Below are positions 13,101-22,100 of a DNA stretch of 64,000 nt, one piece after another. The position numbers were made by a program. Source of the stretch: Escherichia coli (GTDB lineage: Bacteria; Pseudomonadota; Gammaproteobacteria; Enterobacterales; Enterobacteriaceae); NCBI RefSeq assembly GCF_045037415.1, contig NZ_CP173438.1. One strand, written 5' to 3'. The first letter of the stretch is position 1; each line of letters begins with the position of its first letter.

Positions 13101-16100
13101 CTGTTATATGGCGAATGACAGCAAAGGCCATTTTGTTACGGCGAAAGAAGCAGCGAAGCACAACCGCCAGGACGTTTTGTGCTGTGTGTCCTGTGGATGC
13201 CCGTTAACACTTCAGCGGGGCAATGACGGACAACCACCGTGGTTTGAACATGACCAGATGACTGTCGCTGAGAAAATCCTGCTGCGATGCACCTGGCTTG
13301 ACCCGGCAGAGAAAGAGGCCCGTCGTTTGCATCTGCAGGGTATGACGGTTCCGGATTATACGGTGAAGGTGAGAAAGTGGTTTTGTGTGATGTGTGACGA
13401 AGATTATGAAGGAGAAAAGTGCTGCCCGAGTTGTGGTACCGGGGTATACAGCAGGGAGGGGGGGCTGCAGGAAGGCAACTGGAAGGATAGGAACTGAGCG
13501 GTTCAGTCGCGGAAATCAGTTGTAGAGCTGTAATGATATCTCCGGGAGTGCTGCGTTGGTAGGGGCATCCCGGGATAGAGAAATTTTAGCACTTTGCCCT
13601 GAATGATTGTAGACGTCCCGGGTACTCGTACCGGTCTGAGTTATTACAGTTAGATATTCACTTTTTCTCCCGCATACTTCACATCTGTCAACGACGGATG
13701 AAAAGTGGTTCTTCCGCAACCTGGGTGGAAGAAAATGGATGAAACTTTCTGGCGAACAAGGATCTAAGCTGTTTTAAGTTATGGGCAACGCAATGCACTC
13801 TCTTAAGACACTTCTACAGTTACCTTGCGGATGGCGATGCAGTCGACAAATTATTAGCTCTGACGGTATAACCCTCCATCTCCACGGAAAACGCAAAACA
13901 GCACAATGTCCTGAATGCTTTAAGCGTAGCGACTCTGTTCATAGTTGTCGTCGGCGCCGGATACAGCATCTACCCTGCTCAGGGCAGACGCTATGGCTTG
14001 TATTTTCCGTCCGCCACTGGTACTGCCGTAACCCGGCTTGTTAACGTAAAATTTTTGCCGAGTCGCTTGCTCCCTTCGCCGGTTCACACCAGCAGTCTTC
14101 ACAGGCGTTACAAAATTTACAACGTCAACTGGGATTAATAGCTGGAGGTGAGGCTGGAAAACGGGCTGCAACGGCAGCGGGTCTCCGTTGCAGTGCTGAT
14201 ACTCTTCTTCGCAGGGTTATCAATACCCCGGAGACGAAACAGTCAGGCGCGCCTCATGTCGGTATTGATGAGTGGGCGTGGCATCGGGGCCACTGCTGCG
14301 GTATGTTAATAGTCAATCTTGATACTCACCGTCCCCTCGTCCTGCTTCCCGGCCGTGATCAGCGTACGCTGGCGACCTGGTTCAGAAAATATCCGGAAAT
14401 ACAGGTTGTCTCGCGTGATCGCAGTGGAGTCTATGCGACAGCAGCACGTGAAGGTGCACCTCAGGCCAGACAGGTGGCCGATCGATGGCACCTGCTAAAA
14501 AGTATTGGTGATGAGCCTGAACGAATGATGTACAGACATATGCCTCTGATACGTCTTGTTGTCAGAGAGTTATCACTGAAGAAATCACCTGAGCCAGAAA
14601 TATCTGTGCCTGTAGCATCGCTCCGTCGTCCGGAACGCCTTAAACAGCAAACCCGCAAAAAACGGCATCAGCATTGGACAGAGGTTATGGCCCTGCATAA
14701 CAAGGGATGTAGTTTCAGGGAAATATCCCGTATTACAGGCCTGTCGCGAGTGACAGTCAGTCGCTGGGTGCGTTCAGGAACATTCCCTGAAATGTCAACC
14801 CGGCCTCCAAAGCGAGGGCTTCTGGACCCATGGAGGGAGTGGTTAAAAGAGCAACGAGAAAGTGGTAATTATAATGCCAGCCGGATATGGCGGGAAATGG
14901 TGGCCCAGGGGGGGACAGGCAGTGAAACCATCGTCAGGGATACTGTTGCCAAATGGCGTAAAGGCTGGAACCCACCGGTTACTACTGCCGCAAGACTTCC
15001 TTCAGTGTCCCGGGTAAGCCGCTGGTTGATGCCCTGGAGAATAATCAGGGGCGAAGAAAATTATGCATCCCGATTTATTAGTCTGATGTGTGAAAAAGAA
15101 CCGGAGTTGAAAATAGCACAGCAACTGGTACTCGAGTTCTACCGTATTCTGAAAACCTAAAATAAATCACAGCTAAGCAGCTGGTTCACTCGAGTTCACG
15201 AAAGCGGCTCAGCAGAACTTCGGTGCGTAGCTGCGGGGATGGAAGCTGATGCTGCGGCTATATGTGAGGCAATCAGCAGTCGCTGGAGTAATGGTGTTGT
15301 CGAAGGTCATGTAAATCGCCTGAAGGTGCTGATACGCCAGATGTATGGTCGAGCCGGATTTGAACTACTTAGGCGGAGGGTAATGAGTCCACTGGCATGA
15401 AAATCTTCACCTAGGTTGCGGAAGAGCCACTTTTGCACTGTTCGTGACAGTATGGCCTTTATGTACTCACTTTGTTACCGGTAGCTGAATCATCACTACC
15501 GTGCTGCAAATGGTGGTGAACAGCATCAATTGTGGAATGAATGTTGCCGAAGCGACCAATGCGCCTCGTTTCCACCATCAGTGGTTGCCGGACTAGCTGC
15601 GTGTTGAAAAGGGTTTAGTCCGGATACGCTCAAGCTGCTGGAAGCAAAAGGTCAGAAAGTGGCGCTGAATGAGGCGATGGGCAGCACGCAAAGCATTATG
15701 GTTGGGTCGGATGGTGAGTTGTACGGCGCATCCGACTCGCGCTTGGTGGATGATTTAACGGCGGGGTATTAATTGACATCCCCCGGCGCAGTGTGCCGGG
15801 GGATAATGGTTTTATGCGGTCAATAATCGTCCGGGATTATCGATACAGAGTTTTTTGAGGATCGTTTTATCGACGCCGCGCTCCGCCAGATAGGCCAGAA
15901 AAACATCTGGAACAAATCCCCAGCCATTACCGCCATTTTTAGCCCACATTTGTTTAAGGAAGACATCGTGGCTGAGAACAAGCTGATCGGCGTATCCCAA
16001 CTCAATGAGATGAGCGACGGCATCGGCAGTCTCCTGCACCCCTGGCGCTATTCCCTCTTTCGGGAAGGTAATGTCTAGGCCAATCATGTCGAATTCCAGC

Positions 16101-19100: not shown

Positions 19101-22100
19101 TGACCGGGATACTGTTTTTTTGCGCCAATGTGATCGCTTGTTGCAGAGCGGTATAATTTGTTTCGAGCTGCAGAAGTATGACATCAGAATTAATAATCGC
19201 TTCTTTCTGAATAGTTATTTCATCGGACGACATTGTCATGTTGGCACCGGGATAGATCGCAATAACATTATCGCCAGTACCTTCATTAACAAGGATCGTG
19301 GCAGTTCCGGTTTGCGTTTCTTTCGTTTGATAAATTATACTTTTATAAATCTTAGACGAATTCATAAAGTTGATCGCATAATCACTAAAGTGATCTGTAC
19401 CTACTTTTGTTATGAAATAAACATCAGTATCGGCAAAGCTTGCTGCCAGCGCTTGGTTACAGCCTTTTCCCCCCGGTGAAAATATAAAATTACTTGCCAG
19501 AAGCGATTCTCCGATAGTGGGAAGCCTCGGCAAATAACTGATGATATCAACATTAAACGAACCAATAACGCATACTTGACTTTTCATAGTTGAGTGGCCT
19601 TTTTTTATTCCCTGGGCTGTATCATAATTTTCAAGCGCATAAGCGATTTCATTTTTCGCAATAGTATCAAGCGAGTCTAGGACGATAAAAGCACCGCCAT
19701 GACATCGAGTCAGATAGCCAAGCCTGGCAAGTTCATTAAGATCTGATCGAATAGTTTCTTTCGTTACATTGAGGCTATTGGACAGATCGGATACTTTTAC
19801 AGAACCGAATTTACTGAGTCGTTTCAATATTTCATGATGGCGTTCAAATTTCATGCTTCACCTCACTTCAGTTACGTTAATATCTATCGATGTATATTGA
19901 TGTGATAATCACCATAAAGTGGCGGGGAAAAGCAAAAAAAAGCAAAAATAGCCTGAGAAAAGGTAAGCGTTAATGGAGAATCATATTGATGCTTATTTAT
20001 TGGTGAGAACTACGTTCCATGGCAGGAGTTCATCAATACGGTTGGAAGGTTATTCCGGCAGTACGCTCAGGATATGGCGCAGATACGCTTCCGGATCAAT
20101 GTCGTTCAGAAGGCAAGTGCCGATAAGCCCATACAACAGTGCACTGCGCTCGCCGCCGAAGAACATAAAGTTTTTATTTCCGAGACAGATGGCACAAAGG
20201 GCTTTTTCCGCGGCATTATGTCTGCCTCCGCCTGACCGTCAACACTGTAATAACAGAGTGCGCCCCACTGATTCAGTACACAGCTGAACCATTCACCCAG
20301 TCTGGATTTTTGGATAGCGTGGCATTTTTCTCCACCATGCATGCAGTGAGTCCAGTAACAGTTTGCTCTTCTTCTGCCTGACCACAAGATGTGCTGGACT
20401 GGTAAACGATGGGGATACCTGCTTACGCGAGAGCAATAAGTGGCTGGCCACAATTCTCGGTACAAAACTCTGCTGAATAGCAGCGATTTTCCCAGCGTGG
20501 TGCGTCGTTTGCATTTTACTGGTTCTAAGTTAACAATTATCTGTTCACTAATGACTACTCTAAAAACTTGTATCAGGACTATCACTTATTTAAGTGATAT
20601 TGGTTGTCTGGAGATTCAGGGGGCCTGTCTAGAGAGATATAAAGATACCTTCACCCCGGTGATGATAAAATAAAAGTATCTCAGCTATTAAACTGATGTA
20701 CGATTCGGGCAATAACTTATTCGTATAGAGCACCTTTTCTCTGGTGCTCTATACGAATAAGTTATTGCCCGAAATTAATTATATTGTTTATTATCAAACC
20801 GAGTTATAGCTTTTCTCTGAAAACTACCGAATAAAATATACTGATAGACTGCTGCCTAGAATTTCCAGATCAGGTGGGCTGCAAGTTGCAGACCGTTATA
20901 ATCATCGGTTGGGGTGTTGAACCACACTTTACCTGCCGTCAACCCGAGATTAAGTTGCTCAGTCAGCGGTTGAATTCGTTGCAAACTGATGCTCTTCATG
21001 CTGCCGTAGCGTGTTTCTGGCGTCCAGTCGTAGGTGTAAGCACCTGTTCCGCGGCTTAGCCATAGTTGCGTATAACCAGCACCGCGCGGGTCCTTCAGAC
21101 GCACGGAAATCATATTGCTATAACTACTACCTGCATCGCTGGAGTCATAATGGGTATAGCGGTAACTGGTGATCACCGGGCCAGTATAGAGTGATACGCC
21201 GCCTTGCCAGGCATTGACTTCGACATCATCGTAATATTTAGTGTAGCGATAACCGGTCGTGAAAAGCGTTTTTGGCAACAGGGCTAGGTTAATATCCTGT
21301 CGAAAATCCTGGCGGGCAAAGACCGGCGTATTATCCGCAAAGGCAATACCCGTTCGGGTTGTCAGCCAGTTATTCCATTTGTACCAGACTGCACCCTGGC
21401 CGCGAGTGGCATTGAAATGTTCAGTTTCATAATCACGACGCCCCTGGGAAAGATTAAAAAGCAGCGTTGCGTTTTCAACTTTTGCTACCAGTTCAGCATA
21501 CGCTAAATTACGGTTGCCATGTTCGCCAGAATAATCGGTAAAATCGTAGCCCGCGGTAATGGAAGTTAACCCGGCATAAGCGGGCAATGCACTAAAAAAA
21601 AACGGCACTAATAACGTATGCTTTATCATTTTAATCTCCTGTACGGATAAGTTCTTGTCGGAGTGAGTAAGTTCCACTAGGTAAATTACGTTCTACAATC
21701 ACGCGCGGGCCAAGTTGTGTGTTCGGAGAAATAATTCGCCCAGGCAAAATAATAACTTGTACGCCAAGGCGTGAACGCTTCCCGATATAACAACCTAATT
21801 TATCGCATCCGGTAGCGATAATTCCCTCTGGAGTTCGAACAGACACGGGTTGTTCATCCAGACGATGATTACTGGTACGTACTTGTGCGCCCAAATATGC
21901 CTGGTTTGCAACTACCGAGTCGGCAATAAAGCATTGCGGACCAATCGTTGCTTCCGCTTCAATAACCGCATTTTTAATTTCGGTGGCAAAACCAATTTTT
22001 ACGCCATTGCTGATTATTGTGCCAGGACGAATAAACGCATAATTACCTATCAGGCAGTTTGCGCCAATCACTACCGGCCCCTGAATAACGGCACCGTGGC

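Follow-up and report, generated by a model that had tools for sequence, protein, structure and literature searches.

The 64,000-nucleotide stretch of Escherichia coli DNA analysed here (the window; contig NZ_CP173438.1 of assembly GCF_045037415.1) carries four co-oriented genes on its minus strand, between positions 15812 and 19854, headed by a gene for a protein in which a DeoR-type helix-turn-helix (HTH) domain is joined to a ribokinase-type kinase of the PfkB family. A GATase1_like protein, a drug/metabolite transporter (DMT) family protein and a phosphotriesterase (PTE)-family hydrolase are encoded by the genes that follow (Table 1). An earlier note on this DNA, made from the sequence alone, had described an AT-rich, tightly spaced, operon-like array of a DeoR-HTH/kinase fusion, a GATase1/ThuA-like protein, a membrane transporter and a phosphotriesterase-homology hydrolase. 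The open reading frames lie exactly where it had placed them and Pfam agrees with all four labels. The genes are separated by gaps of 13, 53 and 2 nt, each containing a Shine-Dalgarno (SD) sequence (GAAGGGA, GAAGGA and GGAGGT, respectively), the G+C content of the cluster is 44.0% compared with 50.3% for the window, and that at the third codon positions of its genes (GC3) ranges from 0.36 to 0.45. RefSeq names the products as a PfkB family carbohydrate kinase, a glutamine amidotransferase, a DMT family transporter and a phosphotriesterase-related protein, and in one E. coli record the first gene already bears the name rikA. NCBIfam has no family for the GATase1_like or DMT proteins, and no RNA family was found by Rfam at a permissive threshold between positions 15400 and 20500.

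Table 1. Features of the rikA cluster and its boundaries (positions in the window; aa, amino acid residues, numbered as in the fusion protein where a range is given)
Feature	Position	Strand	Basis or remark
ISL3 pseudogene, downstream boundary of the cluster	13781-15400	+	RefSeq annotation of an identical genome
ggt pseudogene, 3' fragment, convergent with the PTE gene	15489-15772	+	RefSeq annotation of an identical genome
GC-rich hairpin (palindrome), 7 nt beyond the stop codon of the PTE gene	15778-15804		Hairpin scan and sequence
PTE-family hydrolase gene, orthologue of STM3550 and Pmi1525	15812-16846	-	Open reading frame, 344 aa
DMT transporter gene, orthologue of STM3549	16849-17814	-	Open reading frame, 321 aa
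Stem-loop between the GATase1_like and DMT genes	17838-17863	-	Hairpin scan; fold of -16 kcal/mol
GATase1_like (PF07090) gene, orthologue of STM3548	17868-18626	-	Open reading frame, 252 aa
rikA orthologue, DeoR-HTH::PfkB fusion	18640-19854	-	Open reading frame, 404 aa
Ribokinase-type PfkB domain of the fusion	18709-19581 (aa 92-382)	-	Pfam PfkB, E = 5.3e-65
Internal in-frame ATG (Met90)	19585-19587	-	Possible second initiation site
Variable disordered linker of the fusion	aa ~58-89	-	Alignment and AlphaFold2
DeoR-type winged HTH of the fusion	19687-19842 (aa 5-56)	-	HTH_DeoR PF08220, E = 4.9e-15
Shine-Dalgarno sequence GTGAGGTGA, whose end is 3 nt ahead of the ATG of Met1	19858-19866	-	Cross-genus alignment
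CRP-like palindrome TATGG-TGATTA-TCACA	19901-19916	-	46 nt before the start codon, ~11 nt past the repeat
Tandem direct repeat TTTTTGCTTT x2, 10-bp phase, 21 bp	19928-19948	-	Candidate operator for the fused HTH
IS66-family transposase fragment, upstream boundary of the cluster	20050-20388	-	RefSeq annotation of an identical genome

The E. coli cluster is an object that has already been described: it is the orthologue of STM3547-STM3550 of Salmonella. Amino acid identity between the two species is 80-83% for the fusion, 81% for the GATase1_like protein, 93% for the DMT protein and 87-88% for the PTE-family protein, and by tblastn (identities 81-93%) the genes are colinear with the loci L002 and L091. 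The clusters have in common the four genes, their order, an upstream repeat, a CRP-like site and an SD sequence. They differ in their setting, for the Salmonella cluster sits in the core chromosome between an acetyltransferase gene and ggt, whereas that of E. coli occupies an island bounded by insertion sequences (IS) near cobUST and the Asn-tRNA genes and retains just a stub of ggt. Gene order is identical in S. enterica, S. bongori, Citrobacter, Budvicia and Proteus and the flanks differ, so that a comparison of genomic context, as the earlier note had suggested, finds the four genes and their order conserved.

McCormick, Jabbar and Escalante-Semerena (Mol Microbiol, June 2026; PMC13432705) renamed STM3547 of S. 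enterica LT2 RikA and showed that the protein phosphorylates D-ribose with a Km of 2.0 mM, that deoxyribose, xylose and xylulose are poor substrates, that residue D343 is essential (the D343A substitution abolishes activity and growth) and that RikA alone supports growth of Salmonella on ribose. The earlier note's description of the substrate as unknown is therefore out of date, the Salmonella orthologue being an active ribokinase. The same authors reported conservation of the STM3547-3550 cluster in Citrobacter, Escherichia, Budvicia and Proteus; they found no functional study of its other three genes (PMC13432705).

The N-terminal winged HTH of the E. coli fusion resembles those of GlpR, AgaR and DeoR, and the best NCBIfam match for its residues 3-61 is AgaR (E = 2.7e-11). 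Those regulators carry the sugar-phosphate-binding effector domain DeoRC, whereas Pfam finds no match to DeoRC (PF00455) in the fusion and places the PfkB domain there instead, which bears out the replacement of the usual DeoR sensor domain that the earlier note had proposed. The kinase is a complete one: the GG motif (GGKG, residues 128-131), the NxxE motif (NETE, 275-278) and the GAGD motif (340-343) are all there, unchanged throughout 64 family members, as are N101, D103, K130, N133 and E231, which align to N14, D16, K43, N46 and E143 of RbsK. Against the NCBIfam ribokinase equivalog TIGR02152 the fusion scores 285.4 bits, below the curated cut-off of 299.65. AlphaFold2 modelled the protein with a predicted local distance difference test (pLDDT) score of 86.5; scores are 74-89 in the HTH, exceed 90 in the kinase and fall below 50 in linker residues 76-89. 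The winged HTH is modelled with confidence and the kinase part adopts a ribokinase fold in the model. A Foldseek search with the model returned ribokinases only, none with an HTH, and its top match was E. coli RbsK (template-modelling score 0.92).

Fusions of this kind form a small and mainly enterobacterial lineage. About 100 full-length relatives (397-412 residues, down to 45% identity) retain HTH_DeoR, and in a library of 1.84 billion representatives clustered at 50% identity only some 21 full-length proteins match a profile of HTH, linker and kinase start from end to end. A scan of a genome collection with an alignment of the HTH plus the kinase start gave two fusion loci among the matches listed, which were otherwise ordinary ribokinases; two Firmicute loci described below (L061 and L017) are by-catch of that scan. 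A literature search on DeoR-PfkB fusions as regulators found nothing relevant. BirA, NadR, PutA, the ROK repressors NagC and Mlc, and YeiI of E. coli, which pairs an HTH with a PfkB kinase, likewise combine in one polypeptide a DNA-binding domain with an enzyme, or an enzyme fold, that acts on the metabolite of the pathway. The E. coli fusion is analogous in architecture to such enzyme-regulator fusions, or trigger enzymes, and is distinguished among them by its pairing of a DeoR-type HTH with a ribokinase. The model NF007416 ('sugar kinase'), which we take to be the NCBIfam model of YeiI, matches only the kinase part of the E. coli fusion, so that the YeiI-type and rikA-type fusions are independent.

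The published work places the start of RikA at Met90, which would leave the HTH outside the protein: a Salmonella construct with native upstream DNA gave just a C-terminally tagged product of ~35 kDa, and RikA(90-404) complements fully (PMC13432705). If the kinase were the only product, the 267 nt upstream of Met90 would be a leader or the decaying relic of a regulator. The position of Met90 is itself conserved, being methionine in 56 of the 64 family members among variable linker positions, and it often follows an SD-like purine run, weak in E. coli (free energy of pairing -3.2 kcal/mol) and stronger in other members. However, a relic would not retain an open frame in which 11 HTH positions are invariant in 64 sequences, nor would it show the constraint found in Escherichia-Salmonella pairs, where by the Nei-Gojobori method the proportion of non-synonymous differences (pN) in the HTH is 0.11-0.13, that of synonymous differences (pS) is 0.47-0.64 and dN/dS is 0.08-0.28; we give dN/dS for the HTH only, the synonymous sites of the kinase being saturated (pS >0.75). 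Down to 45% identity the HTH is conserved as the kinase is, the identity of residues 1-57 to the E. coli fusion keeping pace with that of the kinase at all distances (46-54% and 49-52%, for instance), while among the same relatives that of the linker (58-89) decays to 10-20%. The SD sequence before Met1 is kept in E. coli, S. enterica, S. bongori, Citrobacter, Budvicia and Proteus, where the surrounding non-coding DNA can otherwise not be aligned; it is a strong signal in six genera and pairs with the anti-SD sequence at -7.0 to -9.2 kcal/mol, and Proteus has no start codon at the position of Met90. This pattern indicates purifying selection on the HTH like that on the kinase and argues that the HTH is a genuine part of the full-length protein, and we regard it as unlikely that the kinase is the only product. 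Codons 1-89 (19588-19854) also have a lower pS between E. coli and Salmonella (0.41-0.64) than the kinase part (0.76-0.79), a difference that might reflect embedded internal-start or promoter signals, or a small sample.

The published test leaves room for a long form because it sampled the soluble protein of a clarified lysate, without N-terminal sequencing, and full-length tagged RikA is insoluble (PMC13432705). A long form that is scarce, insoluble, bound to DNA or clipped in the linker may be compatible with the ~35 kDa result; the linker would be prone to proteolysis, given its predicted disorder. One gene could also make two proteins. The conservation of Met90 and the SD-like run that often precedes it make internal initiation, and with it a kinase-only product, plausible, and we tentatively entertain a scheme, for now a possibility and not our expectation, in which a scarce HTH-ribokinase made from Met1 occupies the tandem repeat and signals to the promoter the substrate state of the kinase, and a free kinase made from Met90 performs the bulk of catalysis. 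If so, the two isoforms would reconcile the published product with the strong purifying selection that acts on the HTH. The autoregulating ribokinases would then make up a small family, of ~21 clusters at 50% identity, heading operons for different ribosyl compounds, and the scheme would tie the highly conserved PF07090 protein to the catabolism of ribose conjugates. Should the fused HTH prove functional, the published conclusion about the start would be incomplete and RikA would be a compact enzyme that regulates its own operon.

The DNA upstream of rikA contains conserved elements that bear on such autoregulation. The tandem repeat is nearly invariant across six genera and unique in the window; the sole other match there, at 42388-42406 inside shiA, has 2 mismatches and is at chance level (0.3 matches per shuffle). 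All 13 family loci examined have two 10-bp-phased TTyyGnTT repeats, then a gap of 10-13 nt and then a palindrome that lies 46-64 nt before the start codon, and this layout recurs whatever the downstream genes may be. The repeat thus travels with the regulator and not with the cargo genes, as expected under autoregulation, and it is most likely the operator of the fused DeoR HTH. Operators of T-rich repeats are the usual kind among AgaR-like DeoR proteins. The palindrome matches 8 of the 10 core positions of TGTGA-N6-TCACA in E. coli and 7-9 of them in 13 of the 13 loci, the score of 7 occurring only at the aligned Citrobacter site, and two paralogous loci have a perfect TGTGA left half. It is probably a CRP site, which would make the operon CRP-dependent. 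A scan for sigma-70 consensus promoters gave 9 sites where 10.3 were expected from shuffled sequence, and none fits the conserved elements; this null is consistent with an activator-dependent promoter, of which it is no evidence.

The three remaining proteins are less easily read. The second matches GATase1_like (PF07090) and the crystal structure of STM3548 (2GK3). It contains no nucleophile cysteine of a Cys-His-Glu triad, its nucleophile elbow reading GGY, and its sole invariant cysteine lies within an SDCxPHW motif; a canonical glutamine amidotransferase role was rejected for want of that nucleophile. The PF07090 family is exceptionally conserved, with a mean column identity of 70% between Enterobacterales and Bacillota, and by fold the protein comes closest to ThuA-like proteins and to the middle domains of GH42-type glycosidases, which are non-catalytic; a literature search on PF07090 function found nothing relevant. 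The DMT protein has ten helices in two DMT_YdcZ domains (PF04657, residues 10-154 and 169-303). The hydrolase, a member of the amidohydrolase superfamily (PTE, PF02126, E = 2e-46, residues 14-342), is colinear over residues 1-344 with Pmi1525 of Proteus mirabilis (PDB 3RHG/4QSF; E = 4e-174), an orthologue with the same genomic neighbours in Proteus, and conserves with it the HxH motif at residues 23 and 25 (PHEH, 22-25), the motif that our mapping of metal ligands covers.

Related operons point to the likely substrate. Paralogous fusions head operons for a nucleoside hydrolase with a NupC or MFS transporter (Salmonella, Gilliamella) and, in S. bongori, for an ADP-ribosylglycohydrolase with an ABC transporter. 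A paralogous set in Salmonella pathogenicity island 2 (SPI-2; L093 6763-11055), between ttrBCA and pykF, consists of a fusion of 408 residues, a GATase1_like protein (STM1381, structure 3SOZ), an alpha/beta-hydrolase and an amino-acid permease, and upstream of it lie the same repeat and a CRP-like site close to the consensus, TGTGA-N6-TCACC. In two Firmicute loci, the module is found with its regulator as a separate gene. Oceanobacillus salinisoli (L061 7941-14567) has an RbsR-type repressor, a ribokinase, a GATase1_like protein, an RbsB/A/C-like transporter and a PTE homologue, and Brevibacillus reuszeri (L017 3147-11698) has the same arrangement but with an M20 deacylase and a BtpA/SgcQ protein. 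The GATase1_like proteins of these two are 65-67% identical to that of E. coli (65% in O. salinisoli), and their ribokinases pass the TIGR02152 cut-off (310.6 and 337.1 bits). The Firmicute rbs-like operons resemble the E. coli cluster in having a ribokinase gene followed directly by a GATase1_like gene, with a transporter and a metallohydrolase in addition; they differ from it in having a separate LacI/RbsR-type repressor where E. coli has the fused HTH, and an RbsBAC-like ABC transporter where E. coli has a DMT protein. Since transporter and hydrolase vary among the operons, regulator, ribokinase and GATase1_like protein form the constant core, and in the Enterobacterales an HTH fused to the kinase takes the place of the separate repressor gene, a correspondence that speaks for a regulatory role of the fused HTH. 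In L061 and L017 the PF07090 gene comes after the ribokinase gene, where rbsD stands in the rbsRKDACB operon of Bacillus subtilis, an analogy that raises the possibility that the PF07090 protein acts on the sugar itself.

Taken together, these observations lead us to propose, with a probability of about 0.55, that the cluster is a CRP-dependent operon for the catabolism of ribose or, with greater likelihood, of a ribose conjugate, and that it is autoregulated by the kinase-regulator fusion. The invariance of the ribose-contact residues across the fusion family, the paralogous operons with ribose-releasing hydrolases and the ribokinase module of the two Firmicute loci make us think that ribose is the genuine substrate of the kinase. 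The DMT protein would take up a ribose-containing compound, the PTE-family metallohydrolase and the ThuA/GATase1-like protein would remove or convert its non-sugar part, and the PfkB domain of the fusion would phosphorylate the ribose so released to ribose-5-phosphate. The HTH of the full-length fusion would bind the tandem repeat beside the CRP-like site, controlling the operon with whichever sign, such that expression would depend on the substrate state of the fusion's own kinase domain, as in a trigger enzyme; a shorter kinase-only product may possibly be made from Met90 as well. A one-component regulator that uses a catalytic kinase as its sensor, which is what the earlier note had imagined, is in our opinion a reasonable proposal, supported by comparison and contradicted by a single published experiment.

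Several points weigh against this proposal. That experiment, with its start at Met90 and its single ~35 kDa product, is one; another is that the kcat/Km of RikA for ribose is ~50-fold below that of RbsK, leading its authors to suggest that ribose may be an off-target substrate (PMC13432705). Pfam annotates YdcZ-type DMT proteins as putative exporters, and the activities known for Pmi1525 are limited to synthetic esters. The DHDPS (dihydrodipicolinate synthase) and DUF386 genes that, with MFS genes, accompany the paralogous fusions of Rahnella and Pectobacterium are not obviously ribose-releasing. In most loci the second position of TGTGA in the CRP-like site is not G, the T-rich repeat might serve as an UP element or be bound by some other factor, and the case for DNA binding and operon control by the fusion is drawn from sequence comparison.

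The transporter and hydrolase could alternatively serve detoxification, the PTE-family enzyme hydrolysing a xenobiotic or toxic ester and the YdcZ-type protein exporting the product, with the kinase incidental. The annotation of YdcZ proteins is in line with this, as is the esterase activity of Pmi1525: a secondary paper credits the enzyme with metal-stimulated esterase activity only, and the title of the paper on its function speaks of a methylphosphonate esterase. Across the related operons, however, it is the pairing of kinase and GATase1_like protein that is constant, while the hydrolase (PTE, M20 or alpha/beta) and the transporter (DMT, ABC importer with an RbsB-like binding protein, or amino-acid permease) vary, and the CRP-like site and the ribokinase point to carbon catabolism, so that we hold detoxification to be improbable. 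ROK-family repressors such as NagC and Mlc use a sugar-kinase fold to bind their inducers. That the fusion is likewise a repressor whose PfkB domain merely binds inducer, its catalysis being physiologically irrelevant, would suit the replacement of DeoRC by another sugar-binding fold and the low turnover of RikA compared with RbsK, but is very hard to credit when every catalytic residue is invariant in the fusion family and RikA phosphorylates ribose and alone supports growth on it in Salmonella, a capacity that D343A abolishes (PMC13432705).

The comparison suggests a ribose conjugate that would be imported and then taken apart by the products of the second and fourth genes. The gene neighbourhoods narrow the search for the substrate to ribose-containing compounds, and the functions of PF07090 and of Pmi1525 become directly testable; Pmi1525 is known for promiscuous activity on synthetic esters, and its link to a ribokinase had not been exploited. 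Beside this narrowed search, the interest of the cluster lies in the conservation of the HTH in the face of the published start at Met90 and in the possibility of two isoforms.

The cluster is also common. Of 5426 complete E. coli genomes, 1905 (~35%) carry it intact (at least 80% covered and nearly always at least 99% identical) and ~870 more have fragments of it, and a few E. coli and E. albertii plasmids also bear it; it occurs, too, in Salmonella (including the SPI-2 paralogue), Proteus, Citrobacter and Klebsiella. The window region is 100% identical to chromosomes of the ST131 type, its coordinates mapping one-to-one onto NZ_AP018784.2. Horizontal acquisition, which the earlier note thought likely, is supported by the different neighbours of the cluster in each genus, by its plasmid copies, by the IS remnants at its boundaries and by the ggt stub: this is ~295 bp long, matches the 3' end of Salmonella ggt at 83-85% identity, and lies in exactly the position, convergent with the PTE gene, that ggt occupies in both Salmonella species. 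The hairpin between the two is probably a terminator common to the PTE gene and the ggt remnant. A hairpin is present, too, in the gap between the GATase1_like and DMT genes in 6 of 6 genera (the window, L002, L091, L088, L089 and L090), with folds of -12.6 to -21 kcal/mol and stems that differ in sequence, and could act as a partial terminator or mRNA-stability element that sets the levels of genes 1-2 and 3-4 apart.

Among the neighbours of the cluster in Citrobacter (L088 899-5063) are divergent genes for an APH-family kinase, an IF-2B-family isomerase, a class II aldolase and a permease, which resemble the dihydroxyacetone phosphate (DHAP) shunt genes for salvage of 5-deoxyribose and methylthioribose and may be just island neighbours. 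In the window, an inovirus Gp2-family gene followed by two overlapping genes for zinc-ribbon proteins (12698-13099 and 13087-13497) lies at 11963-13497. Directly beside the cluster on its other side, the same island carries a yaiO-acetyltransferase-yaiP-PIG-L deacetylase set, comprising an outer-membrane barrel and polysaccharide-modifying enzymes (20856-24062). A gene for a protein like 3'-phosphoadenosine 5'-phosphosulfate (PAPS) reductase overlaps an IbrB-like gene, forming an ibrAB-type pair (25105-26957) that adjoins a TonB-dependent receptor gene (27328-29475). At 34576-38884, nac, cbl and yeeO lie among three tRNA-Asn genes, and from ~48 kb (48254-64000) there follows the yersiniabactin island (fyuA), where the G+C content rises to 58-63%, so that with the island around the rikA cluster the window covers two islands about the Asn-tRNA genes.

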